Of a DNA stretch of 64,000 nt, positions 2,152-49,995 are shown piece by piece. The DNA is taken from contig JAYWIR010000002.1 of assembly GCA_036172245.1 (NCBI GenBank), positions 4,030,001-4,094,000 on the forward strand, read 5' to 3'. The number at the start of each line of letters is the position of its first letter. Position 1 is the stretch's first letter. The notes under the pieces were generated by a model. That model was given only the letters and a program-made list of their open reading frames with translations. It did no database searches and was not told the DNA's origin. This DNA is from Raillietiella orientalis. Its lineage: Eukaryota. The position numbers were made by a program, and so were the translations under genes.

Positions 2152-5100
2152 TCACTTTCGTTTCTCTCGGGAATGGGATCGTTTGGAAGAACCTTTATGC
2201 TTGTGCATTTTATGGGACCTACTGTGATCTAAGGATCGTGAATGTGATCGGGACTTATGTCTGGATTTGACTTTGCTGCTGCTATGATGATTGTCAACTA
2301 GATTTCTACCGTGTGATGACAGCACTGTTCTCATTTTTTTTGTTTTAGGAGAAGGGGAAGACGTACGACTTCTTCTCTTCTTTTTCCGATGTTTTTTCTC
2401 CTTGTGATTAGTTTCTGGACTAACTGACCTTGACTTGGATCTTGATCTAGATCTAAAAACAATTTCAAGGGATGCTTCTAACAGAACGCACCTGGAATTC
2501 ACTCGTTTTCTCTCCTTTCGATTTTGATTAGACCTTGATATGGGCGAAGGAGAATGTGATGCTGATTCATCTAGTTGACTGGAGGACTCAGCACTTCCAG
2601 GACTATTTTTTCTAAAATCCGATAATTATACCGCACAATTTATAGATCATCCTACTTGGCAGAAAGACTTTTATCCTCCTTGTCTCGTTTGGCAATCACA
2701 TGATTAGGGCTGTTTTTTAGTGGAGTATCTGGACTGAAGCCTTCAGGAGCAACTGGTATAGGAGTTCCTGACCCTGACAAAGCTTTTGCTCGTAGTTTAG
2801 CTTCCTGTTGCATTTTGCGCAGGCTCTCTACAACTTTCTCAATGCGTTCCAAGTCAGGCTACATATCAGTACAGAGAAATATCAAGAAAAACAAACAAGT
2901 ACTTACTTTTCCGCGACGATAGGCACGCATCAATGTTAAACATATTTCTTGAATGTCCTTCTCTCGAGCACTGAATACTTCAAACCAATGTGGCTTGCTG
3001 GGAAGAGGTATCCGCAAAAACCGGGCAGCAAGGTAGATGCAAGCACTGGCTATGGTTTCTGGTTGAAAGCGGACAAACACATCTGTGCGGAGAGCATCAT
3101 TCATGTTGTTCCTAGAGAAGAAAGAGGGTTGCAGGGAGAGGGAGAGGCTAAAAGGATAACAGGAGGGAGGGAGAGGCACAGTGAAATCAAAGAACCTCCA
3201 AAAACTAAGGATCCTTCCTGGTGACTTGGGTGGATGCTGAATGAAGGCCTGTAGATGACCAGGTTTTCGCACAACGGCTTTGTGCTTGAATTCTACACAA
3301 TAATGTACATGGTATCCCTTCCACATAAATCCCAACCAAGGGTGCAGTCCCTGCACGGTGTGCATACCTATCCCACCCTGCAGCTGCCAGCTAAAGAATT
3401 GGTATTACCTAAGCAACATAATTCAAGAAGTCTTCATAATCAGGAATGCCACTCCGTTCATCCTGTGTCATCCTATACATCACAAGATACATAATCTAAG
3501 TTACTGTCCAAGAGAAACAAGCAGGTCTTACCTAGCCATTCATCCCTCCATGATTAAAGGATGCTGGATTGGCCCAGTTCTGGATGGATGGCTACTTCAT
3601 CTCTGAAGAAGATGCACAGTTTAATGGAGTGCAAACAGACTAGGAATACCCTTAAGGGTGGTCTACTCATATACTAAACTGGCAGCCGTGAGAGCCGAAA
3701 AATTCCCACCCAATATCACCGCCGTGCAAGGACTGCAGTCCCCAAGAACTATAGATTCAAGAAACACTCATGCCTTGGTTGTGTCCTTCATGTCAGTCTT
3801 GTGAGGGTGAGCAAAAGGCCTTCTTGGCTCACCTACTTACCCAAGTTGCAAGGCCCTCCCAGAACTAAAGGCTGTTAGGTAGAAATCAAAAAATATAAAT
3901 TAATGACTGCTTTCAGACTGGCTACTTGTATGCATACAATGCTGAGGCCTTAAGACCACAGCCAAGAACCTCTTTCTGGTCATGCCTAGGGCAGTACTAT
4001 TGCAAAAGCAAATTCTCTGCTCCCAGCTACTTTACAGAAGAAAATTGTTTTTAAAGTACTGCATCCCAGGAAAGACCCTTATTTTTAAAGGTTGTTATAA
4101 TAAAACCAATTTACACACAATTAAACAAACATTAAGAGGTTTCTAAGAAATAAAATTCGAAATAAGAATACCTACCATGCAGACTGGACAAATCGATTAT
4201 TCTTTTCTTGTTCCAGAACTTGCATGTACATGACAATGATCTGAAAACAATAGATACATTACTATCATACAATTTATGTGAATCATGGATGAACAGAATG
4301 AAAATAGCAGAAATTACTTACTTTATGAGGATGTTTGACATGCACACAAAAACCTAATTCTTTCAACACTCTTCTTTCTGCCTTAATTATTTGATTTTTT
4401 AATGTGACATAATTATAATCTAATATCACAGGCGTTATAGTTCTAGAAAAAATAAGAGATTATATAACTTAAGTTCAAAACAAAGCAACTTCAACATGAA
4501 CCCCATAAAATGTGAAAAGACAAATGTGGAAATGACAAATACCTCCCAGCTTTGACTTGTTTGATGTGATGAACTACATTGACAACATCCCTTATTCTAC
4601 GGGGAGCTTCTTCAATTTTGGATGCAAGGTATATGCAGGCCATGGCAAAAATTTCCATTGGATGATTAATAAATGATTTACAATAATAAAATCTCTGAAA
4701 CAATATCTGACCAGTAGCCATTGCAACCTAAAACAATACATGATGTACAAGAAATCTTTAAATATAGAATTAATCTACTTTAAAACTCTATTTTGAAACT
4801 GCCCTTTAAGGCCACAAAATCAATGTGCCTACACTGTGAAAAGTATGCATTACTGCTTCAACAAGTCAGACTGTAAAGTACAATTCAATAGCACACAGCA
4901 AATAAACTAGATATGAACTTTCATGCAGAACAGCAAATTTTATTTCAAAGAATTGAGCTTATGAAACATATATCGCTGTATGAATGAAGCAAGTGTGCAT
5001 TGTTAACAGGCAAAGAAATCCGCACATACAATAACATTTGCCCTATAAACCTTATGTCATTAAGTTTCCATTGCTCAACTCAACTTGTAATGCTTGTAAT

Positions 5101-6344
5101 TAACTAATAAAATCATGAAAAACCACTACATGTACACAAAAGAAATATTCAGAGAGGTTTTGAAATTCCCAATGCCAATAAGTACACGCACATCTACGGA
5201 AAGTTGTGATCGTAATCGAAATTTGCTGATTAATTGACCTGCTTTCTTAAGAAACCTCGCTACACTTTTCGCAATGCGCATTCTTCGTAAAAGGCTTTGT
5301 TTGCTTCAAAAACACAAACACCATGATCAGTAACTTTTAAGTTTTACAAGAAATGATTAAGAAATTCGAAAAGCAGCCACAGGATCAAGTATTAAAATCA
5401 ATTTCTAACAACTTACTAGAGATAACTGTAGGCTGCTTACGGCAAGTGGGATAAATCTTCGAAATGGAGAATAATTCATATATCTCATATGAATATAATA
5501 CTTTAATATTAAGCAGTATTACCTCAAAACGCGACAGCATAAATTAAAAAAGATTAATGTTTACTTCACTTTTGAGGCAGAGAAAAAAATATGAAAAGAT
5601 GGGGAAGAAGAAAATAACTGAGGAAGGCTCTCCACAACCCCTCGCAAACAAGCTATGCAATTGCACACAACGAACAATAAAGTTTCTAGCATCTAGCTGT
5701 CACTTAAACCTAATGATAACAGAAACTTTACAAAATGCGATCGTTGCACAAAATACTTGATTTATTAGTCTGGTTACTTATTACAAGCGCATAAGAAAAC
5801 TTTTTTCTTCATCCAAATGATTCCAAATGATTTACTACATTACAGGCTTAAAACAATCGCACAGGTCTATTACTTTCAATTTCATAAAATAACCAACACT
5901 TCCAATAATCAACGAGGTATTCATATACAATACTTAATTATTATAATCTTCTTTGCCATTCTTAATTAAAAATTATTTAAGACCTCTCTGCACAAAACAT
6001 TTACATTTCTCAGTACCAATACATGCTACTGTAAAAACATTATGGAAAACAATAGGTAAGGTAAAAACTAAGCATGACTGACTTACTTGTGGTAATTTCA
6101 ACAGAATACCAGCCGTCTGAATTAATTCACAGCCATAAAATCTGAGTTCAGTTTCTAGTTCCTTATCCAATCCTTCAGCACCTGATGGTGTGGGATGTAG
6201 TCTTTCTTCCGGTAACAAAACATTCTCAAGATTAATTACAACTTTGCCATACAAAGACTGTTTTGCAGTAGTAGTAGGAACACTTTTTTCCCCCTCTTGG
6301 GAAGCTATACTAGTCATGATTTGTGGAACATCAAAATGACCCAT
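2152..6344 (-). CDS. CCNL1: Cyclin L (CCNL1/CCNL2-like): N-terminal cyclin boxes plus C-terminal RS-rich domain, about 485 aa
   Basis: Exons assembled by hand with GT-AG sites and consistent phases: 6344-6087, 4727-4543, 4442-4322, 4240-4176, 3111-2907, 2858-2656, 2611-2492, 2452-2152. Diagnostic peptides: [110 protein letters not shown], then an RS/KH-rich tail ending in TGA. The start could instead be the ATG at 6318. The symbol denotes the cyclin L family. Confidence 0.95.
3841..3871 (-). other. Candidate alternative (poison) cassette exon in cyclin L intron 4
   Basis: Minus strand reads tttatattttttgatttctacctaacag|CCTTTAGTTCTGGGAGGGCCTTGCAACTTGG|gtaagtaggtgag. Inclusion after the phase-2 TG gives TGC CTT TAG (stop). 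Confidence 0.6.
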
Positions 6345-8495: not shown

Positions 8496-9100
8496 TCATA
8501 ATGGTTTCAAGTACAAATTATGGTAATTTAGAAGAACGAACTCGTTTCGCTCTATGAAGATCGCAGGGAAGGGAAAAAAGGTCACGGGAAATGTCAAGGC
8601 TTCCAGAAAGGAAAGCGATTCCTGAGAATTCTCGAAAAATGTGGTCGCTGTTAAGTCGGACACGAAGAAGCGATCGAGCTTATTGGGTGAAAAGCCGAGA
8701 ACTCGCAGGTGCTTTGGATTATTCTGCTTTGTATATCGCAGTCTCTTCATCCACAAATCTTGGACTTTGCCTTTCTTGGGATTCCGTTCCTCTCCTCTCT
8801 GTTCAGCTTTCCCGGGTCGGTCTCCTCTTGCAGAGGAAGCGTCGAACTCCTGCATCAGGGAACGGCGTCAATGGCGTCCTGCGTGGAACTTCACCAAAGG
8901 AACGGTTCCCCTGTCGGATGAGTTGCTCCAGTCCGGTTAGAGGAAAGCAGGACGGAAATTCTCATCACCAGAGAATCCATCCTGGACGACGTCCTCCTGA
9001 AACCACAGGGAGTCTATGGAGCATTGTAGGTTGAAGTGCACCTGGAAACGTCTCCGGAAAGGTCGAGTGGACCCAGCTGGAAACCTTGGCAGCAGCACAC
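8496..9100 (-). mobile_element. Decayed non-LTR retrotransposon AP-endonuclease fragment (L1/Tx1-like)
   Basis: Translation has ...VQDLW...KLDRFFVSD, resembling the L.D.W and SRIDY/RLDRF motifs of APE domains. It starts an abrupt GC-rich island (about 8550-13300) between the host genes. Confidence 0.55.
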
Positions 9101-9799
9101 CCGCCACGGAGATGGGGACTTTCTTCTCTCACCTTCCGGTGGTTCCGCTGCCGATGTCTCTCCTGTGGGCTCCCCGAGGGTGGCGCGCGCGCCTCATCAC
9201 TTCTCGGTTCGAAACCTCAACCGAGGGTTCACCGTCGTAACCTCCTTGCCGCCACCACTCCCGGAGTCACAGTAGGGATAGGGTGGGGGGATGAGGTCCT
9301 CAGAGCTGCACACAACTGACAGCTTTGCAAGATGCTGGAGAGTGAATGTCCTCTTGCTCCTGGAAACCGAGAGCAGGGGAGGGGGGGGGCACGCATGATG
9401 GACAGCCGGTAGCCTTGACGCCGTCCGTACTGTCGCCTGGGGACTCTCGTCGAGCGCTGCCCTATTAAGAGATGGAAGAAGCTTCATCTCCTCCAGGGAA
9501 CAGCGTGCCTGAGTGCAGGTTGCCGGTTCGTCTCGATCCAGCCCCTCTCCCTTCTGGTTTCCTGTCACCCATGACCGACCTCGTCGTCCACGATTGAACG
9601 CCCGCTGGCAGATTAGCGACTAGCTGCATGCCTTTTCGGAGTAGACCGCGGGAGAGAGCACCGTGGACGTGATGGGCTCCTCCAGGAGTCCATCGGTGGA
9701 GTGCTGATGGCCGGCAGCGGCAGTTACCCGCGGTTCCCGAGCGTGGCTGAGGAAAATGAGGGAGGGTGCGACGGCCCCCTCACATCGTGAGGGAAGAGG

Positions 9800-10520
9800 G
9801 TGCTCTGGAGGCGAGAGGGGTGTCGTGTGGTTGCTGGGGTCAAAATCGAAGCTCCCAAGAACCATCCGCTTTGCAGCAGCTCGGACCACCACCTCCTGCG
9901 CGGTAGCAGAGCTCTTCAAGGTTCGGTGAGCCTTCGCTCGCTGTTGATGCTCGCGGCGGCGGCAAAGATCAACAGTGGGGTAAGAAGGGGATGCCCCAGA
10001 TGGGGGAGGGGAGGAACTCCGGAACCTCCCCCTATTTTTCTCTCTCTCTCTCCTCTTGGTCGGAGTCTCCGCTTCTCCGAACCCCCACGGTCTCAGCATT
10101 CTTTGCTTCCGGTGCGGAATTTTTGGTGCCAGAATCTTTCGGAGCCGTCGCAGCCTCCCACCGCGCACACCACGGTGCGGAGACCGCCTGGTCGGACACT
10201 GCCCTCCCTCGAGGACTTTTCCGGGAAGGATTCGGAGCAGTCACGAATTCCCGGTTTAGAAGAACAGAGCGCGGTCGGCACCCGCTCTGGCTTCGTGCTA
10301 TGGGCTGGACCGACCCTCTCGCTGATGCACCGTCCCGTCCTCGTGCACTACACGGGTGCAGGGGGCACGCCCTGTCGACTTCTGATGGGAGCCCACTGGT
10401 CGTGGTCCAGAGTGTGCCCTCTTCTGACGAGAAGGCAAGGTGGTTCGGTTCCAGCAGAGGACGGTTTCTCCGATGCGCTTCGAGCAGGCGCGGCCCGGAA
10501 GATAGAATCGCATTGAGCAC
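9800..10520 (+). mobile_element. Decayed Tx1/L1-like ORF1 fragment (zinc-knuckle region)
   Basis: VLVHYTGAGGTPCRLLMGAHWSWSRVCP resembles the V.Y.GQP..C..C...GH....CP pattern of Tx1-type ORF1. Confidence 0.4.
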
Positions 10521-13500
10521 CACCTTCTTGGCGGACCACCTCGCTGATCTCTTAGCCGCCAAGCCTTCCCTGAGTGGCGGCCCTCGCCTCCGATCTTGGC
10601 ATGTCCCGAGGGAAGCTCGCGGGACATCGTGAACGCGCCAAGCCCGGGATGAAGGTGGCAGATTCCTGGTGACCCAGGGATCAACGACCAGGGAAGGCAG
10701 CCGGTCTCGGTGCTAGACCGTACAGATGAGTGCTCTAGAGAGCCACCAGATGGAACCGCGTCGCAGGTGTGCCTCTCCTCGTCGATCTTTGAGCCTCTCC
10801 TGCTGTCCTATGGTGAAGCTTCCGTCTCCACCCGGGGACGATGACAGCTCTCCTTCGCCGACGATCCTGGAGAGCGAAACCGCGGTGACCTTTGAGGACT
10901 GGGGGAGGTGCAGGCGTCTCCGAGGATCGGTGTGCCGTTGTCGAGGAGATTCTCCCCTCTGGTGCATTCCGACCCCGTGTTTACAGGCAGCTCCGGAAAA
11001 TAATCGTGCGGCCACGTCTGCGGGAGTCGCCGATGACGTCATCTCGTCCGAGTTTTCGATTCTGATGACGTCCAGCACATCCACCAGAAACTTGGTCCGG
11101 GTGGCCCCAAATGTGGTTGCATACCTGGAAGCGCACAGAGTCCCGCGTCCGGCCATGCGTTTGGACAGTCTCCGAATGTGGGATTATGTGTGACGCAAGA
11201 TGGGCCTGGAAATCACATGTGCTGCTGCTGTGCCAGATAACGGCATCGCCCTCTTGAATTCGGGGTGGAGGTGCTCGAGATGAGTGCGGGAACGCCCTGA
11301 GGTTAAGAAAGGGGGCATGAAGGTGCAGGGACCATCCCTCTCAGGTAGATGTAGCTCTGCAGCTGTTCCCTGCTCGGGATCCGCTGGGGACTCCTCCATT
11401 ACCGCCTCTTAGAAGACTAATCCAGACAGGATGCCTATGGAGATCAAGAGGGAGGGGAATCCTCTATGTTCTTCCCTCCATTCGTCTTCTCCTCTCTTCG
11501 GCTCAGAGTAGATTCCCCGGTTTCTGCTCTGCCCCGTTGGCTATCCCCCTCTCGCCCCGACCGAAACGCTAAGGAGAGTGGGTAGCGACTCCTCGGGTAC
11601 CGGAAGGAGGATGCAGAGATACAGTGGGCGCTTGCAGTCTCTCTGTGGGAACGAACAAACGGAGGAAGAGGCAGAGATTCTTGAGCGGCCTCAGCAGCAG
11701 TCACCGTGAGCGACGCCCTCTCTTCGTATGGCAGTCCCTCGCCTTTCCCTATGTCGCCCTCATCGTCCCCTGCGGAGCATGAAGGAGCTCCAGGTAAAAA
11801 AGAAGGTCCCCCCGACCGTTTCCATGATCGCGCTGTCCACTTCACAGGCCTCGGAAGAGCAGGAGAGGCGTCTCCCTTCTCGCTTTCCCACAAAATGCCG
11901 AGGTCCTACCGCAATGATCGTCGCACGGTGGGCGGGAGGGCGGACCGAAGTCGAGGTTCGAACGGGAGAGTTTTTTGCGAGGCGTCAGAAAGAACAAAGT
12001 GGGAAAGGCACGCAAGAATCTTTCCGCCGTGGAACGGTTTCTCGCAGATCACTGACGCATCTGGCTTAAGGGCACGCCTAGATGAGAGGGGGCAGTGGTG
12101 GACCCCCTGCGCGCTCCCTCGCAGTGGAAGGAAGTAAAAGCAATGCGCCTTAGAGGTTCTCCTGAGAAGGACTACTGGTAGTGGTGCCTCTTTGACTACC
12201 ATTTTTCCAGCTCGCTTTCCTCCGTCGTCCCCTAGGGCACGAAAGGCGCTCGGAGTTCTTAGGGGACTTCTCTGCGTCTCTAAGGAAACAGCTTCTTTTC
12301 TCCATGGGTAACAATGGGGCTTTGATATTTCACTACGTGCGAAGCGCGCGCAAGAACGCAATCTCGCAGCCCGCTTTCGATCTCAGGATGCCTACCTGTT
12401 GACTCATTCCCGAGGGAAGTTCTCCTTTCCCATGAGGCGGAAGTCTCCATCCTCCTGCTTTTCCCTCTCCTTGAAAAAAAAAAAAAAGCCAGGAATTCCT
12501 TCCTCTCACTCCTCAATCCAGATGTGAAGCATTTGGCATCCCTGCCGAGGCAGGTGAGCGAGGGAATGCGCCTGCAAAATGCGGACGTGCAAAGCGCAAT
12601 ATGGCAGCTGCATAACGTACGGTGCCCCATCAATACCCTGATTCGGTTTCCTCCATCAAGATGTTCCTGAAACCCTGCTCACACGATGAGAGCAACATGG
12701 CCAGTGCCCTCAAAAATGAATTGGGAACAAATGCCTTCTTCCGTCAAGATTGTCAGTCTCCACAGATACCTCCATCCAACGCATTCCTCTGAAGTAGCGC
12801 TCCTGCTTCTCCGAAAGCCTTGCAGTTCGGGCAATGAAAGCAGATACGTTCCGATCGGATGGACGTTGGCCAGGAAACTTCAGTGTGAGGCTTTCGACTT
12901 GCATGAACGAGGAGGCACAGGGGGAGGGATGATGTCTCATCCTGAAGCGCACCTGCGCTTGCACCTACCTTCGAGAACGAAATTGCGGACCGAGTTCTCG
13001 AAAGAGCGACATCTCCACTTACACAGAAGAAACCAACGCATTCACTCGGCATTCCTAATCTCACATATCGCAATCTGATCCAACGGGAACGATGCATTCC
13101 ATCATATCATCCCCAACTGCTTTATCCAGACGTAGTTTGTACACTTCAAGGAATTCACATACGGAGCGGCGAAACCTACCCCTAGACCTGGTGTCCATTC
13201 TGTTTCATTCTATTTCCAATTGTGTGACTGAACATCTGAATTCCAGAGAATTCGCCTTGTTCTTCCACGATTTCCAAAAAACCGAATCCCGCATCACTTA
13301 CTAGTTACCTCTATGTACCTACAGGCAGAGATGCCAAATGCTTTTCCAGTTTCCATGCAATTCCTAGTGTAACATCAGATATGAGCTGACCTGCAATTGG
13401 CAAAACTTTACAAGCAGCATCACATAGCATATGTATAGTATAAAGTTGTTGTACTGTCATTTTGCTCATGAAAATTACCATCTAAAGTCATAACAGCAAT

Positions 13501-14698: not shown

Positions 14699-16019
14699 TG
14701 TCAGCGAAACCAGTTTATCGCTAGTTTATAAAACCTTCCTAAGCTGGAATTTTTCGTCTTTGTTTTCGATCAGAATTTAATAGAAGGTCACGTGCAAGGA
14801 ATTTCGAAGAAATGTATTGTTTTGAGTAATCTGTGAAGGATGAAATGCTTTTAGAATACCAAGCAAACTTCTGCCTGATCTATTTCCTACTTTTGTTGTA
14901 AATGCTACTTTTAACGGGAATTTAATTTTTCATTCTATGTTTTCAAAGAACATTGAGTACTCTCAAGTTTCTAGTAAAAAAACATGCATAGACAATAGAT
15001 AAAACAAACAAGCATTCCTTTTTGAGTTTTCTGGTAACAGTCTCTCGGTCAGCCTCATTTTCACAAAAATATGTAGAAGTTTTTAACTACCCAATTAGAA
15101 GAACAAATGTGTTGAAAACACAAACGCTAAATATTCTAAAGGATTTTCTATGGAATTCTTTATGCTTAAAATTTTCATTCTTTTGTGATCATTAATAAGC
15201 CATTTGGAGGAAGCCATGTAGTAAAGCTTACTATAATTGTTAATGTGATTGCCTGTTTATCACTGAAGAAATTTATAATTTTACTGAAGACAAAAGAACA
15301 AATAAGGAACGCTTTTTTATAACGGATTTATTTTGCTAAGTATACCAAATACTGTATCTCTTAATATTCATTGAAAAGTGTATGATTTATCATGAATCGG
15401 ATTGTCAAAGTCATTGTAACCCATATATAACATAACTGTAAGTCTTACAATCACTAGTATCCAGTAAGTTTATAGGAATCATTTCTGCCTAGTTCACTGT
15501 GCCTCATGCAAACCCAATGCATTTCTTCTCAAAAGCAATCTAATCACTTTAAAAATAAAACTGTATACTGTCTTTGCATTTGAAAACACGATCTTCATCC
15601 TCACAATTGTTTGTGTGGTAATTTTTAGATTCTTTTTTACTTAATAATCAAGAACCAGTAAGCCTTGATTTTAGGTAATTACATTTAAATCTGCTTTTGT
15701 TCTGAACGTGATCAGTCCAATTATGGCTGTGGATGAGTTTGTTATAATGTTTTTCAAGAATTATTATGAAGAACGTAGTCAAGTCAATAATCAATCTTCT
15801 CGCAATGTTGAAAACATACACTGGCATTACTGTTTGTATTGTTGAAAGGTTTTTCTGACGATGTGTGGTAATTGGAGTTTTAAATTAAATGAACGTTGTA
15901 ATAATGATAAGAAATGAAATTTTTCAATCAAATTTGTTTTCCTACGCAGGTTTTTCGAATGTAGTTTGTGGTATGCAGCTTATTTGATAATTAAAATATG
16001 GAAGTTTATAAGCGGGAGT

Positions 16020-16160
16020 TTTGTCCAATCAGAATGAAGCTTGTTTTGCGATATTTGCGCTATCCAATGTGGTCTTGGTTTGCTCTTGGAACCATGTCGC
16101 ATGTACAGCAGTGTTAGCGTCATCCTAATTTCAAATTAAAATAGTGTTACACGGTAGGAG
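16020..16160 (+). promoter_or_regulatory. Candidate tra2 promoter or non-coding leader exon
   Basis: Two CCAAT boxes (about 16025 and 16065) followed by a donor ACG|gtagga at 16154. A strong acceptor at 15949 means this could instead be an internal 5' UTR exon. Confidence 0.35.
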
Positions 16161-16956
16161 ATAATAATCTTCAATGTTAGCAAATGTGAATTATGTACTT
16201 AATTGTTACCAACATTATGCGTGCGAAGTCTTCAGTTGCTTTTCATAATACTGTTAGATTTGCAATTCACAAAAAATACATGAATGTAAATGATCTCATT
16301 TGTCTGCTGCCAAGTGATTATAAAGAATAATTAACTCTTTTTATATGTTTGCTGAAGTAATTTATTAAAGAATCAAAATTGATAGGTGGTTTCCATAGAA
16401 CGGTATGCCGAAGATTATGCAGCAACATTTAAAGAATCCATAGTTTGTACAAAAACTTTGTGCTAATCAAGGAAGTAACTTTAATTTTTAATATGCCTTT
16501 TCTGAACATCAGAGATGAAGACTTCTAATATTTGAGTACTTTTGTAAAGACTGTTTGCAGAGAAATCCTAATTAATGAATAGTAGAATGTTTCATTCTTG
16601 CTTTATGTTTAAATGAGTTCTTATAACCTTTGTACTGTGCTACTGCTAATAGACTTTTTCGTTCATGTTTATTTTTTTGTGAATACAGAAATCTGAAACG
16701 ATGACTAGGCAAGTATTACATTCACTATAGTTATTTTTGAGTGAGTGACAGTTTAATAAAAACTAGATCTTATTAGTTTATTAATTCAGTGTCTTATATG
16801 AATAGTTTTTTCAAGGGTATGTAAACCCGGCTTATTGTTTTAAAGCAAGTTTCCAAGAACGAATAAATGAGAATTCTAGAAACCTTGTGTTACAGCTTTT
16901 GAAATTTATTTCAAGAGGTGTCATATTTCCCAAGTTGAAGTTTCATTTGCTGGAGG

Positions 16957-18129
16957 ATGAATGATAGAGATGTAAGTATTTCTGAGTTCATAATTGCTAA
17001 AGGTGTGGAGGTGTGTACTTTGAGTATTTGGGGTTTCATTCATTATTTTGCCCTGTATATAAAGTGTTTTGTGAAAACCAATAGTTCTTTGACTTGCTTG
17101 CTTTTAATTCAAAATAACTGGTAAGCTCAGGGAGCTTTTGATTAAAGGATAAGAGAGAGAGAAATGGCACAAGGCATTCATTGGAGATAGGCAAGTCATC
17201 AAAAAGGGGAGGGAATTGCAAAATTGAAAGAAGCCTCACACCTGAGGAGCACTGTAACTCGAAGCGAGAAAAAAGGAGGGACTGTTCCAGGTCCAGGTAA
17301 GGGGCCATGCCTGGAAGGCTGCCCCCAACACATCCCCTTCTGCTGACAGGAGTGGTTCACCTCAACGATCATATAGGAGATATCATTCACGCAGTTTATC
17401 TAATTCTCCTTTGCGAGATGGAAGGTATTCTCGATCACGATCTCGTTCCTATTCTCCACGTGGTCGAAGACGGCATGATTATGATAGAAGATCACGATCT
17501 CCCATGTCTAGTCGAAGAAGACATGCTGGCAGTCGGGTAGATATAAGTAATTGCTTATGTTACATTCTGTTGGCTTAGGATGAGCCTGATCCAAGTCGCG
17601 TTCTTGGCGTATTTGGTCTCAGCTTATACACAACAGAGCGTGAATTGGATCACATCTTTGCCAAATTCGGTCCAATTGAAAAAGTGGTTATTGTATTAGA
17701 TGCGCAGGTAAATTTGCTTCAAGTCCAACTTTTCTTGATTATTCATTTGAAGACTGGTCGATCTCGAGGGTTCGGGTTTGTGTATTTTGAGCATATGGAA
17801 GATGCACGAGTAGCCAAAGAGGAATGTTCTGGGATGGAGATAGATGGACGACGTATTCGTGTAGATTACAGTATAACTTCTAGGCCACACACTCCTACAC
17901 CAGGAGTATACATGGGGAAACCCAGCTAGTAAGCTAGGATGCCAGTTTTGTATATTTTCAATTTCTGTGTTCTAGTGGAGGTTATCACCGTGGAGGAGGA
18001 TTACGCCGTTCACCATATTATAGTCGCAAACGCTATGACCGTTATAGCCGCTCACGATCATATTCTCCACGTGAGTACTACATGAATGTTTGCTTTAGTA
18101 AATTCTATGCAGGTCGCTACCGCTACTAA
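16957..18129 (+). CDS. tra2: Transformer-2 homolog, copy A (RS1-RRM-linker-RS2), about 255 aa
   Basis: Exons 16957-16971 (MNDRD), 17148-17296, 17350-17536, 17579-17707, 17753-17928, 17976-18070, 18113-18129; total 768 nt in frame. Peptides [80 protein letters not shown], ending SYSPRRYRY*. AATAAA at 18177-18182. Confidence 0.93.
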
Positions 18130-18379
18130 GCGCTGGCAGAATTTGGCATTTGTTGAGATGATCTTCACCTTGACTCAATAAAAATGCCTTACTGAATACA
18201 AGGGTTGTGGGTGTCAAGGTTATGGGCAGCAGAACCAAAAGTTCCTGCTGAAAGGGGTTTCTGCAGCCCTTTTCCTCCCTAGCAGTGAATTCCATGGTTT
18301 ATGGTGTATGCTTGACCATGTTATGTTTTAGGTGACAAATTTGATAGAGTCCAGAACATTGCAACTGAAGTGTGTTACC

Positions 18380-19394
18380 ATGACTGATCGTGAGGTATGT
18401 AAAGGATCAGTGGCTGGGTGCAGGTTTTTGTTTTTTTTGTTTGTAGAGTGCCAGTGAACGGAGTCCATCACCACATGATGGACATTCTGAGTTCAATGAC
18501 AAGGATGTTTCACGTTCTCCTTCACTGATAGGGTTAGGAGGGAGAGGTATCAGTCGTTCACGTACTGGATCACCTGCTGATGATAAACTCGATTTAAAAA
18601 ATCATTCTTTTTCGCATTCCCGTTCGAGCTCAGCACATGGAAAAAAGAATTATCGGCGTTACTCTCGAAGTCGTTCTCGATCACCCCGTCGTTACCGGGA
18701 AAAATATAGTCGATCCCATTCTTATAGTCCAAGACGATCCCGTTATGATAAAAAACGGGGTGGTCGCCATAGCCACTCACGCTCACCCATGTCAAACCGT
18801 CGTCGGCATACTGGTAGTAGAGACAATCCCGAACCTGGGAGAGTTCTGGGTGTGTTTGGTCTGAGTTTATACACCACAGAAAGAGAGTTACATCACATTT
18901 TTTCCAAATTCGGGCCCATTGAAAAAGTGATGGTGGTGTTGGATGCTCAGGTAGGGTATGTGTTTACGAGTACACTTAATGTCTTTTCTGAAGACGGGAA
19001 GATCGAGGGGATTTGGATTCGTGTATTTTGAAGCAACTGAGGATGCTAAATTAGCTAAGGAGGAGTGCTCAGGAATGGAAATAGATGGTCGTCGGATTCG
19101 AGTGGATTTTTCTGTGACTCAGAGACCTCATACTCCTACTCCAGGCATCTATATGGGAAAGCCTACTTAGTAAGTTCATTAACCATCTGCTCCATCCTAT
19201 TTTCTCCCAGTGAGTCGAGAAGCCGAGGTTATTACCGCAGTTATCAGCGTTCTCCATCACCCTACTACAGAAGCCGGGGAAGACGCTATGATCGCTCTCG
19301 TTCCAGATCTTACAGTCCTCCACGTAAGTTCATTTTGCCAACTGAATGGTCGGACTTTCTAATGATCGTGGTTTCAGGCCGTTACCGTTACTAA
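18380..19394 (+). CDS. tra2: Transformer-2 homolog, copy B, about 274 aa
   Basis: Exons 18380-18394 (MTDRE), 18447-18950, 18994-19169, 19211-19323, 19378-19394; total 825 nt in frame. Peptides [76 protein letters not shown], ending SYSPPRRYRY*. AATAAA at 19492-19497. Confidence 0.95.
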
Positions 19395-22300
19395 TTTCAT
19401 CCCTTGGATGATGCTCTCAAAAAAAGTTCATCATTTGTTAAGAACAGATAGTTCATTGGACCCTCCCCTTGGAGGATGGACTGGACTGCACAATAAATTG
19501 GTGCATCCTTGGCTTCCCTTATTCAGTCCCCTGGCACGGTTCGTGCGTTATGTGTCCTGGGTGCGCTTAGCTGCGTAGGATTGATGCCAACCCTTTGTAT
19601 TATATTTTATTTTGCGCATGCACCACTTCATTTTTGTGACAGCATCATCAATAGCCACATATGTAAAACACGGAAGCTGAATCCAAACAAGATGAAGACA
19701 TCATTCCATTGGCATTCATTAGTTCATTCACCCATATTATTTATAGGCCACATTTTTTAACATTTCAAAAATCTTCCCATACGAAAGCACCATTGTGTTT
19801 ACCAATCTCTGGCGTTATAAGTTCGCAGTTTCTGTGGAAGGAGCATTCAGACAAATTATTAATTTTGATTCATTCTGTTGTTAAATGTTACCAGAAATTT
19901 TGTGTGTGATGAATTTATTGGATTACTTTGCATTTTTGTTATCCATGCGGTAACTAAAATGTATTTTTAGGTTATCATCAATGAACACTCACATCCAACT
20001 GTTATAACACAAATGAAATAAGAAAGCCTTTCCCTTCTGCCACATAAGAATCGAATGAAGTTGCCGTTAAGTACGAATAGATCGTAGTTCAAGAATGCTC
20101 GAAGAGTGTGTGCATTGGTTGTTTAGCGCAGGCAGAAGCATTCAGTGGTGCAAAGGGCCCATGAATGAAACAAAAAATTCCAATAATTAATTTCGAATTG
20201 AAGAATCAAGTATTTGAAGAATGCGTATCGTTCAAGTTATTCAAGCACACAAGTCTTCTTGCAAGGTTTATTGGGTAGGTCACAGTTACGTGCCTCTATG
20301 TGAAACCAGTTTCAGACCAATAAACCAGTGTGCTTTTTCAGAAGCGTCCAGTTCTCCGAATAGCGCGCGTTCATTTTACTTTGCGTGGCATTTTCTGTTT
20401 TGCGCTGCTTAATGTATAGGGCTTACGATGTGCTTAAAGACGGGCTTCTGCATAATTTATGTATTACTTCATTACGAAGTCTATTTATAATATACATGTT
20501 TTGATATGTTTCGCCAGAACAAATAAGAGTATCACCAGCACCACATTCCAAGTAAAGTAGCTCGGAAGCTTTTTGTTCACAGATCAAGCTTAGAATATTC
20601 AGAGTAGGCGCCATCATCAATGTACTACAAGTACACTTTAACAGAAGTGCTGGCTTTAAGAAGACTACGATTATGTGCATCAGCAAATGGGAGTCATAGA
20701 ATCATAACATGTTTACAGCGTGCATCCTCCCTCCTCCCTTCCCGTAGATTTGTCAATTTAAGCATTGCATGTGCTATTGCGATAGTGTTTGGTCGATGCA
20801 TATGAAAATCAGCTTTCTTTCCTCGCTTTGCTAAACCTGGTCTACCCACAAACATTGTGTGCAGTTGTCTCAACGCGATTTCAGTAAGGAGTAAGGGCGG
20901 TGGCACTGTTCGATGCGTACCATAAAATTTGGTCATTTGTCGGCCGTTTTTTTGCTTTCGGTAAATGGCTAGTTTAGTTTCATGAAACCCAGCAATTGTG
21001 GTATTCTGCCGGTGTACGTCAGTATAGTTTAGCTCAGTATGGCCTCAAGAAATTTGTCGTTTTGTGAGGTTCGGGGTACAGAAGCACGTTTTGGAGATCA
21101 TGATTGGGTCAATTGAGTCGAGTGAATAATTTCAAGGTGGAGTAGTAGTAGTATGTACCTTTCCGTTGTGCCCTGCTTAAAAGCTTTGTGACGGTTGCGT
21201 CGTATTTGTCATATAAGACATTGCAGCTACTTTGAATCGGACACATCAATTGAAATCTTCAGCGGTGCACAAGGTATCGGAAAATTGCAAAGTAAACGAA
21301 CGAAACACTTTTGGGGAGATATTTGATCCACCTTTAACCGAGTACTTTGTTTCCGATGTCATTGGAAATGCGTCGAGTGGAAAAGGCGTCTTTGTCCTTT
21401 TTTCCTCTTCCGTCTGTCTGTGGAGTCATATCCAGTAGGCAGCACATTTAAATGATCGAAGTCCACTGACACGAAAGAATCCATGCTTTATTGGATTCGT
21501 ACCGTGCCAATATGGCAAAGTGATTATGCAGGGCAAACTTTCGTGTACTTCCACAAATTAGTTTGACAGTAGAAAGGAAACGTTTTCGAGTCCCTGGTCA
21601 GTGGCTCCAAACATACACATTGCATGGCAGTGAAGTTTTCGATTTTACCACCTGGGCCAAAAAGGAGATACCTACAGAGCAACCAATACAGCAAGGATGT
21701 GGGTTTTTTTCGTCTACGGCGTAAAGCCGTTCGTGTGAAGAAATGAAATTTTCAGTTAATGCCGTGAGGAAATCAAACGGAAGCGAATTCTTGCGCTGGG
21801 ACACTTTTCCATCCGAACTGATGAAACTACTGTGACTGCGCAGGGGTTCAGCTCCATTTCAAGGATCTCACGAAATGCGAGGAAGCTGCTAGTGATCATC
21901 TGCTTAAGCGATCTGCATGAAAATGGAATCTCACCTCTTTCAAGAACCATTCTTTCTGGGCCATGCTTACAGCTGTCTTGGATTTTCTCGAACGCAGACT
22001 GGAATCTGGAAAAGGAGTTTATTTGAATGGATGATACATACAGTGTCTCACCACAATTCAACGGTTTTGTTTCGTTTTGTGGAATTCTCAGCTGCCTTCG
22101 TATGTGTTACTTTGCTATCTGACTGGCTGAAAGGCATCTTCGCGTATTACGAAAAGTTTCCCGCAAAAACACTTTGTTTTTTTGAGAATGCGCTTCAAAA
22201 ATCCCTCCGACCCGTCTTTTTTTTCATCGTGCTTCCTTGTTTGCCAGGGTGAATGCATGCTTAATGGTTTGGCTCGGTTCGTGGTTACCCTTGCTCCTCT

Positions 22301-29399: not shown

Positions 29400-30790
29400 C
29401 CGCTTGAAGGACCTGCGTGCTCCGCGCCGCGATGGTGATTTCGACCTCTTGGTTACTCTGGAACGCCTGGAACGGCAGCCCCAGTGGAGAACTGGTCCTA
29501 GAGACGAAGTATCGAAGCCCCAACTGGTGTGAGCCTGCACACCTTCTGGTGAGGGAGCGAGCTACCAACTGCGAGGGACTCTCTTCCCTTGTGCAACGCC
29601 ACCAGAACGTAGCCCACTGCGGACTTCAGCTCCGGTGAGTAGCTGTGCTGACCAGAGAGAATACCTGGATTTCCCGCCTTCTATCGAACAGTAGTGCCTG
29701 GCTGAAGGAAGCCGTTCGCACGTAGGCGAAGGCCAACGAGACGAGCCCGGAACCTCGGCAGCCACTGCAGCGATCCCTCTACAAGAGCTCCTCACTCCAG
29801 GAGATCGTCGCGCTACCCACCAAGCAAGCGTGGATCGAAGCAATCTTCCTGGCCCCCGGCGCTGCCCTCCCTGAGGAAGCTTCTTGGCGGTAGCCTACTT
29901 GCAATGTGGGAGGTCTCCTGCGAGGGCCAACGTCAACTCCAGGAGGAAGGCTGTAGGTGGTTGGACCGCGGAGCAGCAGACTGAGGCTGCGACCCAAGTG
30001 CCCCACCGAAAGGACTCACGGCGTCAGGAGCGAGCTACTCGAAGTTCCCCGGGAATACCTCGAGTGACCCCTAGTGCTTCTGAGCAACTGCAGCTTCGCC
30101 TCACGCGGCTTCCGTCGCTTCTTCTCCCTTCTTCCCGTGATGAACCCGAAGGACAGTGGACTAATCCCGTCCGCGCCTTGGAACGCTGATGGCCGGAAAC
30201 GCTCGCCAACATCACTCGACTCGGACGGTGGCAGTGGGGTAGACCCAAACTGCAGCAGTTGCTGGGAACGTGAATCCCTCTTGCACCTGCTCGTGGACCC
30301 TGCGACCACTGTGAGAAAGTTTTGCTCGACGGCCCTCCGGACCCTATGTGACAACCCCAGGGACTCACGAAAACCCCTCTTCGTGCATAACGCACTGCCG
30401 CTAGCCGCATCCCCAGCATCTCATTGCTGCCTACCCGAGATTGTGGTGCTCTGGAACGATGCCAGAGGAGGGGATCGCGCTAGTATCGCCATCCGCTTCT
30501 CCCTACGTTTTTTGCAGATGGCAGCGAGATGGTCCCATCTGAGGAACACGCAGCAGAAACTTGCCAGCTTCCTCAAGAGGATGCAGAGGACGGCTACCAG
30601 AAGGCTATGACCCCTTCCCGTTCACTCCAAATTTTTCTTCCTGTTTATATTTTTCCTTTCTTTTCTTCCTTCCCCTCTGCTATCGAGTCCACCTTCGCTG
30701 GCCTGGGCACCGGCTTCTCGACAGGTTCCTAAGTGTCTATGGATGTGGTTTTCCACTTGGATACGTCGGGGCATATATTATGAAAAATTA
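29400..30790 (+). mobile_element. L1/Tx1-like element 3' part (C-terminal zinc finger, stop, T-rich tract, structured 3' UTR)
   Basis: VDPNCSSCWERESLLHLLVD (Cx2C...E...H zf-RVT-like), then AIRFSLRFLQMAARWSHL...LASFLKRMQRT*, a C-terminus shared by at least 6 other copies in the window. Confidence 0.75.
30105..30465 (+). repeat. Inverted repeat 2, left arm (361 bp; partner 34947-35307)
   Basis: Reverse-complement identity with mirror sum 65412; one mismatch seen (30429). Confidence 0.92.
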
Positions 30791-33899: not shown

Positions 33900-36480
33900 G
33901 GACCTTTATAAAAAAAAATAAAAATCCATGTGTAGGGTCATCGGCCCTACATTGTTCGAAAATGCTCGGAACCTGCCGAGTAACCGGTATTCAGGCCGGC
34001 GAGGTTCGTCTCGGCAGTGGAGGGGAGATAGCAAACAGGAATAAAAAGAAAACAAAAAATATATACAAGAAATTGGGAGGGTCAAGGAAGGGATCACTGG
34101 GAGCTGGAAGGCGTCCTCTGCATCCTTTCCAGGATGCCGGCAAGTTCCTTCTGATTTTGTCCCAGATGAAACCATCTAGCTGCCGTCCGCAGGAAGCGCA
34201 GGGCGAAGCAGATGGCGTCCCTGTCGTACCGTCCTCCTCTCGTGTAGCTCCAGGCCGCCACAATCCCGCGTAGGCAGCAGCAATGAGCTGCTGGGGATGC
34301 GGCTGACAAAAGGGCATCGCGCACAAAGAGGCGCTTCATCACTTCCCTGGAATCGTCCGTCGATGCACCAAGGGATGTTGCGTAACGCAACCACAGGGAT
34401 CGAAGGGCAACAAAGTCTACAAGCAGATGCGGGAGGGATTCCCTCTCCCTGGACCTGCAGCAGTTTGGGTCCACAGCCCCCCGGGTCTAGTGATACCGGC
34501 AAACGTTGCATGGGAGACCTCAGTGCAACAGCAGAAGTGCCGACCCTTGCCACTTCAAGGGGAGGGAACGGTTGTTCTTCGGGGCTGGGCCACTCGATGT
34601 CTTCCTGAGGGATTCCCAGCAGCTCGTTTCAGAGCAAAGTCCTTCCGGCAGGGCACTTGGAATCGCAGCATCTGTTGGTTGGTCCATGGTCCAACCACCT
34701 AGCTCCTTCGTCCGAAGACCTATTTCGCAACTGACGTCCCATTTGGATGGCTGCTTGCTGCCCAGGTGCTCCCTGAGGGAGGCCAGTGCCGCGGTTGGGG
34801 AGGTTCTTTGCGCCCACGCACACCTGGTGGGCTGCACGATGATGTCCTGCAGCGAGTGGATGTTGTAGAAGGAGTGCAGCAGTCGCTGCCGCATCTCCGA
34901 CTCGCTTCGTTGACAGAGATGTTGGCGTTACCTAGCGCGGTCCTCACTGGCATCGTTCCAGAGCACCACAATCTCGGGTAGGTAGCAATGAGATGCTGGG
35001 GATGCGGCTAGCGGCAGTGCGTTATGCACGAAGAGGGGTTTTCGTGAGTCCCTGGGGTTGTCACATAGGGTCCGGAGGGCCGTCGAGCAAAACTTTCTCA
35101 CAGTGGTCGCAGGGTCCACGAGCAGGTGCAAGAGGGATTCACGTTCCCAGCAACTGCTGCAGTTTGGGTCTACCCCACTGCCACCGTCCGAGTCGAGTGA
35201 TGTTGGCGAGCGTTTCCGGCCATCAGCGTTCCAAGGCGCGGACGGGATTAGTCCACTGTCCTTCGGGTTCATCACGGGAAGAAGGGAGAAGAAGCGACGG
35301 AAGCCGCAAGACCTTCATGTCCCTGGACAATGGATAACCTTAACTTCGGGCAGCCAGCTGTCCTCTTTTGTTGCAACTGCAACCGTGAGCTCGTGAAATG
35401 GGGCAGCTCGAAGTTGGCATTTCGTCTCGGGAACAGTAAAAGTCTGCTCCGGGCTGGCAACGGACTCCTCCGCGTGCCCCAGCAGACGCTGGGTCCAGGT
35501 TTTGCCAGCAACTTGGTGTCCGTGTTTAAGACGGGAACAGTCCTCCAGTTGCCGAAATCGCATGTAGGTAGGAGACGCTTTCGGGAGACGCTTTCTGATC
35601 AGATCTCTTGTTGATCAGATCGAGGCGGGCATCTTGTCTGTTTCACACATCAGCAGGGTCAATCTCTGCACCAGGGAGGGTCAGCTCTGCTGCGAAGTCC
35701 CTACACAGCTCTGCAGGCAAGCCATCCTCTTCTGGCGCCTTCCAATTCATGAGCTTTTCGTCTCCCCCATTGCGAAAGACCTTCCAAGGTCTCAAAATAC
35801 CTCCTTTCCTATCGCTGAAACGTCTTCAGGTAGCCACGGTTGCAAGAGATTGCACTCTCGGGTGCCCTGCAGCACGGGGAAGACAAGAATTCTCGCATGA
35901 TGCGCTCTACTACCACGGTCAGGAGCCGAGAGTCCCTGGCCGTTTAGCAAGGAGTCCCCAAGACGGACTGCTGGGCCTCGCACTCGGCCCCGTCTCGAAG
36001 TTCCACCATTCGAATTTCAGCATTCTTTGGCAGGACCGTGCCTGCAGAAAAGCTAACTCGCCACGCATCCTTCCGCTGAAGCCGGAGAGGGAGCTCCGCA
36101 TCAGGACGGCGCAGACTCGGCCTCCTGACACCCTCGAGCGAATATGGAGATTCAGTTGCGATGGAGATTGCTGGACATCTCAGACACGTACTGGAACACC
36201 CTCTGGTGCGTTCCCGCACTCCTTTTCGCCAGCCGTGCGGTCGAAAGCAGACGACTCGCGTCCCACCTTTTTTGACGTGGCCGAAAGGTGAAAAAGTGCG
36301 AAATCCTGGGATGGTTGGCCACACTGGCGAAGGAAAACGGCTGGATACCCTGCTGCCCCGACAACTGTAGTGCTTGGTTACAAGAAACAATTGGCACGTG
36401 TTGAAGATGAATGAATCCAGCTTAGAGACTTGGAATGCGGAATCGACGTTCATGCTCGCTGAGGAAGTTCCTGGAGAGTC
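33900..36480 (-). mobile_element. Best-preserved L1/Tx1-like ORF2 remnant (EN-RT-zinc finger-3' UTR), frameshifted
   Basis: KAPEEDGLPAEL (about 35710-35745), NWRTVPVLNTDTKLLAK (about 35500-35550; RT motif WRPISLLNTDYK), KELGGW (about 34700; PK..GGLG), DPNCCRSRERESLPHLLVD (34474), 3' UTR hairpin at about 33970-34020. Confidence 0.8.
34947..35307 (-). repeat. Inverted repeat 2, right arm
   Basis: Reverse complement of 30105-30465. Confidence 0.92.
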
Positions 36481-38762: not shown

Positions 38763-39699
38763 GGCGAGCGCCTCTGAACCCTGTCCTCCTCTGAGATTCC
38801 GGAAGGAGAAACCACTCTACTTCCGAAACCCTCTTGCCAGATCCTATTGTAACTGATGGAACTTCCAGGCATACCAGTATCCTTGATTGCCCATCAGCTC
38901 TGCTGGATGCTCTGGCTGGTGGTGTCCGTACGTACATTGCGCCTGTGGGGGAGAGGGAGGAGATCCGCAGGGAAAGAGCCTGAGACCTCCAATCCTTAGC
39001 AGCTACTTGGAGCTGCTGCTCGACGGATGCAAGAAGACTGTGGCGAACCTGCCGTCTTCCTGGCCTTGCAGACAACCTCCTGCTGTCGTCCATGCCTACC
39101 GCGACGGCGCCGCTCGTGTCGCCAAGAGGGCGGAGTCAGTGATGGTAGCCGTGGAGAAGCATGGGCAGAGCGGCGAGGTTGGAAAACCTCGGACTCGACA
39201 GCTGTTGAGAGCATTTTTCAGCACATCGGGGATTCCGCCATATTCCGACCGCTTCCACTGCCGCCCATTTGCACTTCGGGGTTCAGCGTTTTCACCGCAC
39301 GAGACGCTTCTATTCCTTCTGGGATGCATTCATTGCAGTAATCGCTCCGGCGTTACCGAGTAACGATTCCCCCCACACGCATAAGCAACGTCTTCCAAAG
39401 GTACGAGGTCTTAGGAATTCGACGTTGGTAGGGGATGAAAGTTCCCTATAGCCGTGGCAACGAGCCCGAAATCCGGTCAGTGGTGTCGCTCTGAGACTTT
39501 CGTCCCTCAGGTGAGAACGCGGGGGATAGCCGGAGAGGCGGACCACCTCTGAGGAGTTCGGTGACCCATGCAGTAGCGCGGCACAACCTTCAGCTTGCGC
39601 TTTCGCCTAGCGAGGACTGGGCCACATCCTAGGGCGCTGCGCAGGCCCTCCTTTAGGCGCCCTGAGCCAGCTTCCCGAGCAATACTCTGCCGAGAGACA

Positions 39700-42617: not shown

Positions 42618-42699
42618 GTTTAGGTCCACGCCCAGCACCCACCATGTGCACCGTGACAGGATGAGTCCTGGAATTCACAAGAAATGGACCTGCTAGTTT

Positions 42700-49387: not shown

Positions 49388-49995
49388 CATTTCTCGTACC
49401 ACGTGATGTGTGTGACGGCACGCACCCCACTGCCAACCGATCACGGATCCAGCGCTTCATGCGTGCGCCAGCGGGGGCCGAGGTTCCAGGCTACGGGATG
49501 TGTTCCAGGCCGTCTGCTCCCGTGCCTTCCAGGAAGTTCATTTCGTTCCGCTGGAGTCGGGAAGCTGTAGGCCGCATGGGTGCCTGTTATGAAGAGGTCG
49601 ATCAAGTCCCATCCCACCTGTGTTTTGGCTGGCCTACGCGACCACCTGTGTCGAAGGGAACGGTTTGCCTCATCCGCGCTCCGTGCGTCCCCGGAAACCT
49701 GCATGCGGAGCCCCGAAATCCCCCTCAAGGGTCATTCCGAGGAGGGTTCGACCCCGCGGATCGTCTGCACGGAGAGCCTGCGTTCCTCCTGCTGGAGCGC
49801 GCGATCGGTACCCGTTGGTGATTCCCTCCAAGCGGAGTCGCGTCTCCCGGCGGCCGTCCCGTGGGCTGCTGATGTTCCGGTAGCCCGTGTGCGGGTAGCG
49901 CGCGAAGGAGCGAGCCGCCTCCCATCACGCCAGGTAAGACGTCAGTTTCCCTGCCTTCCCGCGTGGCAGGGGGCCACTCCCCACCCATCTACGAT

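Follow-up and report, generated by a model that had tools for sequence, protein, structure and literature searches.

Two old, expressed tra2 paralogs 250 nt apart in Raillietiella orientalis, and where transcripts of the downstream copy may begin

We analysed a 64,000-nt stretch of Raillietiella orientalis DNA (contig JAYWIR010000002.1, positions 4,030,001 to 4,094,000 of the forward strand; hereafter the window) and found two complete paralogs of transformer-2, tra2-A and tra2-B, lying head to tail on the + strand within 16.9-19.5 kb of the window. Both copies have remained intact, are expressed and evolve under purifying selection, and the duplication that produced them is old. The stop codon of tra2-A and the ATG of tra2-B are 250 nt apart. 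As a splicing regulator, Tra2 is dosage-sensitive, and it acts as a cofactor in the sex determination of arthropods; the question that this spacing poses is where tra2-B transcripts begin. We tentatively favour the reading that tra2-B has its own start site and that the pair would be two ordinary genes derived from an old tandem duplication.

Results

Two complete tra2 genes in tandem

Gene models based on reading frames and GT-AG junctions gave a protein of 255 aa from seven coding exons for tra2-A and a protein of 274 aa from five coding exons for tra2-B (Table 1). All ten introns of the two copies are GT-AG, and nine of them measure 41-54 nt, the exception being intron 1 of tra2-A (176 nt). 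The coding part of the first exon reads ATG AAT GAT AGA GAT followed by the donor GTAAGT in tra2-A, and ATG ACT GAT CGT GAG followed by the donor GTATGT in tra2-B. The resulting N-terminus of tra2-B, MTDRE, has the form M-x-D-R-E that is common to insect, tick and spider Tra2.

Pfam RRM_1 was detected in the open reading frame 17579-17926 of tra2-A (E 9.9e-18) and in the open reading frame 18447-19028 of tra2-B (E 1.3e-5, this frame holding only the first half of the RRM), and the 87-aa RRM core of the pair could be aligned with Tra2 from 10 other taxa. The RRM is flanked by RS/SR dipeptides, 20 N-terminal and 6 C-terminal in tra2-A and 21 and 12 in tra2-B, with an R+S fraction of 0.41-0.48. 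A protein search at E <= 1e-3 returned 792 proteins. Most of the highest-ranking matches with a name were arthropod transformer-2 homologs, and full-length blastp identity to Schistocerca Tra2 was 57.6% for tra2-A and 61.1% for tra2-B. Judged by these sequence features, the predicted product of each copy is a complete RS-RRM-RS protein of the Tra2 type, that is, an SR-like splicing factor. No further tra2 copies or fragments were found in the window; the 65 weak high-scoring segment pairs outside the locus were all low-complexity RS-like matches, the best of them (E 2.45e-5) on the RS tail of a cyclin L gene.

The two copies differ in exon structure. Two introns in the RS1 region of tra2-A (17297-17349 and 17537-17578) are missing from tra2-B, whose exon 2 is a single exon of 504 nt. 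Exon 2 of tra2-A contains six GAA and is 149 nt long, a length not divisible by three, and use of an AG at 17122 upstream of it would introduce an in-frame TAA after four codons. Regulated or unproductive splice choices are known in other Tra2 genes, and tra2-A exon 2 with the AG at 17122 might be such a choice. The GA-rich composition of this exon is only a hint at a role in sex-specific splicing or autoregulation.

Expression, constraint and age of the pair

Both copies are represented in RNA from one public metatranscriptome run (X1, word share 0.07), in which three contigs are 95-99+% like the window. These contigs are short and lie inside coding exons or at the 3' end, with 17884-18734 and both 5' ends outside their coverage. 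Contig 1 spans the tra2-A introns 17537-17578 and 17708-17752, contig 2 falls within exon 2 of tra2-B (18735-18946), and contig 3 spans the tra2-B introns 19170-19210 and 19324-19377 and stops at 19503; four of the ten introns, two per copy, are thereby backed by RNA. The contigs differ from the window at 10 positions. Every one of the nine that fall within codons is synonymous (two in tra2-A, seven in tra2-B), and the tenth is in the 3' untranslated region (UTR) of tra2-B. Metagenome contigs scanned with exon 2 of tra2-B gave 338 pattern matches, none of which was confirmed, and an exact 25-nt pattern from the first coding exon of tra2-B had no match among them.

Between tra2-A and tra2-B the proportion of differing synonymous sites (pS) is 0.84, that is, saturated, that of nonsynonymous sites (pN) is 0.29, falling to 0.11 within the RRM core, and the proteins are about 60% identical. 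Saturated synonymous sites together with low pN indicate that the duplication is old and that both copies have been constrained.

In a tree of Tra2 proteins, tra2-A and tra2-B grouped with an ostracod protein (Shimodaira-Hasegawa-like approximate likelihood ratio support, SH-aLRT, 87). The two copies are sisters in the best tree found, an arrangement that was not rejected by the approximately unbiased test (p-AU 0.57); nor was a placement of the pair with insects (p-AU 0.50). The branch of tra2-B is shorter than that of tra2-A (0.29 versus 0.56), tra2-B being the better conserved copy. The RRM of the pair has motifs in common with ostracod and copepod Tra2, and the N-terminus has motifs in common with insects. 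By their best matches, both proteins are arthropod. Of 84 candidates in a search with one exon of the cyclin L gene of the window, 42 were hits, at 53-75% identity; 23 of these are beetle, 3 carry other names and 16 are unnamed. For another cyclin L exon Octopus (72.6%) ranked above Tribolium (64.1%). No close relative was found in the protein collection searched.

Table 1 Features of the tra2 locus, in positions of the window
Feature	Position	Strand	Remarks
Two CCAAT boxes, candidate promoter upstream of tra2-A	16025-16068 (boxes at 16025, 16064)	+	Motif scan; inside the CpG-retaining patch
Putative non-coding leader exon	16105-16153	+	ATG-free; ends at GT 16154, a weak donor
Putative 5'-UTR intron of tra2-A	16154-16895	+	29% G+C; CpG observed/expected 0.51; many ATGs
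tra2-A coding exons	16957-16971, 17148-17296, 17350-17536, 17579-17707, 17753-17928, 17976-18070, 18113-18129	+	Frame and GT-AG model
tra2-A first coding exon	16896-16971	+	61-nt ATG-free 5' UTR, then MNDRD; ATG at 16957
tra2-A coding exon 2	17148-17296	+	69% purine; model only, outside RNA coverage
tra2-A coding exon 3, RS1 domain	17350-17536	+	3' junction backed by RNA contig joint 17535>17578
tra2-A coding exon 4, RRM first half	17579-17707	+	RNA joints at both ends; Pfam RRM_1
tra2-A coding exon 5, RRM second half	17753-17928	+	RNA joint 17705>17751; Pfam RRM_1
tra2-A coding exon 6, RS2 domain	17976-18070	+	Model only
tra2-A last exon	18113-18182	+	RRYRY, stop 18127-18129, 3' UTR, AATAAA 18177-18182
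Gap between the copies, to the acceptor-like AG	18183-18331	+	45% G+C (52% in 18201-18293); 0 CpG; no donor like the real ones
G/U-rich stretch	18202-18226	+	20-44 nt past the tra2-A AATAAA; putative downstream element
Cluster of five ATGs	18294-18325	+	Directly upstream of AG 18330-18331
Branch-like cttgac, short pyrimidine tract and AG	18311-18331 (cttgac 18311-18316, AG 18330-18331)	+	Motif reading
tra2-B coding exons	18380-18394, 18447-18950, 18994-19169, 19211-19323, 19378-19394	+	Frame and GT-AG model
tra2-B first coding exon	18332-18394	+	48 nt with neither ATG nor stop, then MTDRE; ATG at 18380
tra2-B coding exon 2, RS1 and RRM first half	18447-18950	+	RNA contig 18735-18946; Pfam RRM_1
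tra2-B coding exon 3, RRM second half	18994-19169	+	RNA joint 19169>19211
tra2-B coding exon 4, RS2 domain	19211-19323	+	RNA joints at both ends
tra2-B last exon	19378-19503	+	RRYRY, stop 19392-19394, 3' UTR, AATAAA 19492-19497; RNA contig extends to 19503

A proposed own start site of tra2-B in the gap

From the composition and motifs of the gap we infer that the tra2-A transcript would most likely end at its own poly(A) site and that tra2-B would most likely start at its own compact, TATA-less site in the last part of the 250 nt. The best location for this start would be past the cluster of five ATGs, at about 18327-18379, giving a 5' UTR of at most 53 nt, and the AG at 18331 would then be a chance motif.

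Several properties of the locus favour this reading. The canonical AATAAA of tra2-A (18177) is followed 20-44 nt later by the G/U-rich run 18202-18226, and the two together may be read as a complete tra2-A poly(A) site with its downstream element. The segment 18201-18293 has a G+C content of 52%, a value that none of the 3603 upstream non-coding windows attains and that 2.2% of 3392 downstream windows reach; compared with 29% in the putative 5' intron of tra2-A, the gap does not look like a leftover intron. The splice signals that would imply an exon upstream of tra2-B are at chance level, as described below. In addition, tra2-B keeps its own ATG exon with the M-x-D-R-E start and a donor, and most tra2 genes described so far begin with the ATG exon. 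Finally, the 48 nt between the AG at 18331 and the ATG of tra2-B are free of ATG, a property shared by 36% of background 48-nt windows. The strand skews of the gap resemble those of the tra2-A 5' intron, the counts being too small to weigh. An Rfam search gave no hits at the gathering threshold over the window and none at E <= 1 on 15500-20000, and no tRNA genes were found.

Other observations weigh against an own start site. A motif scan found no CCAAT, TATAAA, TCAGT or TCATT in 17900-18400. The ATG cluster at 18294-18325 is itself unusual, at least five ATGs in 36 nt occurring in 0.16% of background windows, and it requires that the start lie no more than 53 nt from the tra2-B ATG, since otherwise a number of short reading frames would precede it in the transcript. 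In spite of gene-poor surroundings, the pair is still only 250 nt apart. The 250 nt between stop and ATG contain 1 CpG against 11.4 expected, with none of 5000 shuffles as low, whereas the sole non-coding patch that retains CpG between 15.7 and 20 kb is 15751-16250, upstream of tra2-A. If the loss of CpG reflects germline methylation of gene bodies, the gap resembles the interior of a transcription unit and not a promoter.

Splice-like signals upstream of the two copies

The tandem arrangement of the two genes had been recognised in the original prediction, and the landmarks it placed are all present: AG dinucleotides at 16894-16895 before tra2-A and at 18330-18331 before tra2-B, the branch-like cttgac at 18311-18316, the AATAAA at 18177-18182 and first coding exons that encode MNDRD and MTDRE. 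Its spacing of about 150 bp from the AATAAA to the acceptor agrees with the 147 nt that we measured. The claim that almost no room is left for a promoter is a judgement; 197 nt lie between the AATAAA of tra2-A and the ATG of tra2-B. The original prediction had also held that each first coding exon is preceded by its own splice acceptor, and here the presence of the AGs and their strength as signals have to be separated.

An acceptor weight matrix derived from the 10 local acceptors had little power (real sites scored from -4.2 to 8.3 when left out one at a time), and by this matrix 27% and 32% of 411 background AGs scored as well as 16895 and 18331, respectively; the AG at 16915 outscored that at 16895. 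The AG-free distance upstream of an AG had a median of about 30 nt for real acceptors and 13 nt for background, and on this distance and pyrimidine content the real sites stood out. On these measures the AG at 16895 was unremarkable. The AG at 18331 has 46 AG-free nt and 10 pyrimidines among 15 positions, which is matched by 29 of the 411 background AGs (7%); with 17 AGs in the gap, about one AG as good as this is expected by chance. The GT at 16154, proposed as the donor of an upstream leader exon, scored 0.47, a value that 28% of 457 background GTs match and that lies below the 4.1-11.1 of the 10 real donors. As far as such sequence scores go, the acceptors at 16895 and 18331 and the donor at 16154 are not above chance as splice signals.

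A possible single promoter for both copies

The signals above bear directly on an alternative in which a single promoter near 16.0-16.15 kb serves both copies, and a non-coding leader is spliced either to exon 1 of tra2-A or, once the poly(A) signal of tra2-A has been read through, to AG 18331. The A:B ratio would then be set by the choice of acceptor and poly(A) site, and a tandem duplication whose breakpoints fell within the 5'-UTR intron and shortly after the poly(A) site would produce such a layout. We consider this arrangement somewhat less likely than an own start site of tra2-B.

The distribution of CpG speaks for it. As a calibrator, the 250 nt before the ATG of cyclin L keep their CpG (7 versus 5.9 expected), and the ratio of observed to expected CpG is 0.24 in its ATG exon and 0-0.36 in much of the gene body across 3001-5000. 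At the tra2 locus, the patch 15751-16250, which carries the two CCAAT boxes, contains CpG at about the expected level (8 versus 7.3 in 15904-16153; 6 versus 6.1 in 16000-16153). Depletion then runs from 16251 through the gap between the copies, including the 250 nt before the tra2-A ATG (2 versus 5.5 expected) and 18183-18331 (0 versus 7.3 expected), and the ratio returns to about 1.0 after 20 kb. This footprint would fit a promoter of both copies near 16.1 kb. However, only two promoters calibrate the argument, and one of these is putative; read-through past the poly(A) site of tra2-A could also methylate the gap and leave an identical footprint. Across 1-24000 of the window, the ratio is 0-0.4 in many 250-nt windows of the two gene bodies and about 1 in flanks and presumed promoters, and low values in gene bodies are the pattern expected from gene-body methylation.

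The region around the AG at 18331 is likewise compatible with a shared leader. The ATG cluster stops at this AG and an ATG-free stretch follows it, the AG has its 46-nt AG-free zone and the branch-like cttgac, and no GT among the 14 in the gap scores as high as even the weakest real donor, which means that any upstream exon would be located beyond the gap. An in-silico junction of the putative leader 16105-16153 with the first coding exon of either copy added no upstream ATG and left the main ATG first. Against this stand the weak donor and the chance-level acceptors, the strong-looking poly(A) site of tra2-A, and the G+C-rich gap, which is unlike the AT-rich 5' intron of tra2-A. No RNA junction of this kind was seen, the contigs stopping short of the 5' ends. 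Nor was any remaining homology found between the regions upstream of tra2-A and tra2-B, their local alignment score being 19 compared with a shuffle mean of 20.7 (256 of 300 shuffles as high).

Possible read-through and trans-splicing

tra2-B could also be made from read-through RNA of tra2-A, either as a dicistronic mRNA with internal initiation or through chimeric splices from tra2-A exons; joining the exon 1 donor of tra2-A to 18332 or 18447 would keep the frame. The CpG footprint fits this possibility as it fits a single promoter, the 48 nt before the tra2-B ATG are open in the tra2-B frame, and the 250 nt from stop to start fall within the range of -34 to 319 nt of polycistronic-only Drosophila loci, of which about 18% contain similar genes (PMC4528330, excerpt). 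On the other hand, the spacer between the tra2-A stop and the tra2-B ATG contains eight ATGs, which rules out simple re-initiation, and the gap RNA shows no excess of structure over shuffled sequences (z = -0.61). Together these make translation of tra2-B from a dicistronic mRNA unlikely. A canonical poly(A) signal follows tra2-A, tra2-B retains its own ATG exon, and the better conserved copy would be ill served by inefficient internal initiation. We regard this explanation as improbable.

The original prediction had offered an operon as a further option. In this reading, one promoter near 16.1 kb would give a polycistronic precursor, and spliced-leader trans-splicing would act at 18331 and perhaps on tra2-A at 16895. 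An AG with a pyrimidine tract lies 48-61 nt before both ATGs, and the distance from AATAAA to acceptor is of a kind that suits this model. Some RRM motifs of the pair recur in Tra2 of ostracods and copepods, and calanoid copepods trans-splice a common 46-nt spliced leader (PMC4664967, excerpt). However, the acceptor motifs are at chance level, and tra2-A and tra2-B fall outside the copepod clade. The tree cannot separate an insect from a crustacean placement of these arthropod proteins. In the consulted excerpt of PMC7986045, trans-splicing is absent from insects and is present in copepods and amphipods, for which no operons are reported. Given that the proteins are arthropod, trans-splicing at this locus, and with it such an operon, is therefore very unlikely. 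No spliced-leader RNA family was found in the window with Rfam, which counts for little, as such genes would lie elsewhere. The rest of our estimate goes to other options, among them a start of tra2-B inside tra2-A or further upstream.

Other features of the window

The cyclin L gene lies on the minus strand at 2155-6317, with its ATG exon at 6087-6317, Cyclin_N exons at 4536-4727, about 4175-4447 and 2724-3119, and an RS-rich tail at 2155-2625. Its introns are a mixture of short ones (about 50-90 nt) and others above 1 kb, whereas those of the tra2 genes are almost all 41-54 nt. From 24000 to 64000, and also at 8500-13000, a long block of 55-67% G+C with a CpG ratio of about 0.89 stands beside the gene region of 30-45% G+C. 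No tandem repeats were found in this block, and Pfam gave no family for any of the 191 open frames of at least 110 aa that start from 25291 on. The block contains two perfect (100%) inverted repeats, 39691-42624 / 46463-49396 with arms of 2934 nt lying 3838 nt apart, and 30105-30465 / 34947-35307 with arms of 361 nt lying 4481 nt apart, which could be real palindromes or a fold-back artefact of assembly.

Discussion

The arrangements considered for tra2-A and tra2-B have counterparts in other animals. In FlyBase, 130 Drosophila genes are flagged as having a shared promoter and shared 5' non-coding exons, for example Ip259/RpS27A, and 159 pairs are listed as dicistronic, of which about 18% consist of similar genes (PMC4528330, excerpt). 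The original prediction had seen here a candidate for an undescribed regulatory system, a description that does not hold, given that both classes are already present in Drosophila. The proposed single-promoter layout resembles the Drosophila pairs in having two coding regions, one promoter, a common 5' exon and alternative splicing; it differs from them in that the tra2 regions are paralogs, that a full upstream poly(A) site must be read through, and that no junction has been seen (PMC4528330, excerpt). The tra2 spacing of 250 nt also falls in the reported Drosophila dicistronic range (PMC4528330, excerpt), whereas the eight ATGs of the spacer and the canonical poly(A) signal, in which the locus is unlike Drosophila dicistrons, argue against a translated dicistronic tra2 mRNA; none of the three RNA contigs extends from one copy into the other. 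By this comparison, the single-promoter and the dicistronic arrangement would both belong to classes known from Drosophila.

Brogna and Ashburner reportedly described in 1997 the Adh/Adhr genes of Drosophila as dicistronic tandem duplicates. The tra2 pair is like that type in consisting of tandem paralogs a few hundred nt apart, the downstream copy of the Adh/Adhr type being without its own promoter. The human C2 and factor B genes are close tandem neighbours insulated by a G-rich pause and termination element. Their likeness to the tra2 gap would lie in a short G-rich spacer after a poly(A) site and before the next gene, a parallel drawn here on base composition alone. Spliced-leader operons of nematodes, tunicates and flatworms have an acceptor about 100-150 nt past the poly(A) signal without an evident promoter in between, a layout that the tra2 pair would match with its putative acceptor at 18331; the tra2 lineage differs from theirs in being arthropod, and arthropods that trans-splice are without reported operons (PMC7986045, excerpt).

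Retained duplicates of Tra2 occur elsewhere. In the flea beetle Altica lythri, tra2.1 and tra2.2 are 91-93% identical, recent, and on different contigs (PMC10066108, excerpt). As in tra2-A and tra2-B, both duplicates were kept and each is RS-RRM-RS; unlike the Altica copies, tra2-A and tra2-B are old, with saturated synonymous sites and about 60% protein identity, and lie 250 nt apart (PMC10066108, excerpt). We found no literature on tandem tra2 genes under one promoter in title-level listings, and the excerpt of PMC4392698 makes no mention of tra2 duplication. The meaning of the locus depends on which account of the tra2-B transcript is correct. Another retained pair of the RS-RRM-RS type is TRA2A/TRA2B of vertebrates.

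If tra2-B has its own start, as we tentatively favour, the locus would amount to no more than an old pair of tandem duplicates, separated by a very short spacer. If one promoter served both copies, with a choice of acceptor and poly(A) site, the ratio of the A and B proteins would be a splicing decision open to feedback by Tra2 itself. If the pair were a spliced-leader operon, the locus would give arthropods their first reported operon, and one that involves a splicing regulator. Whether tra2-B has its own start or shares a promoter, the arrangement is of a kind catalogued in Drosophila, and the value of the locus lies in the specific gene and not in a new mechanism: an old, tightly linked and diverged Tra2 pair is a natural case for how the paralogs of a splicing factor stay balanced.

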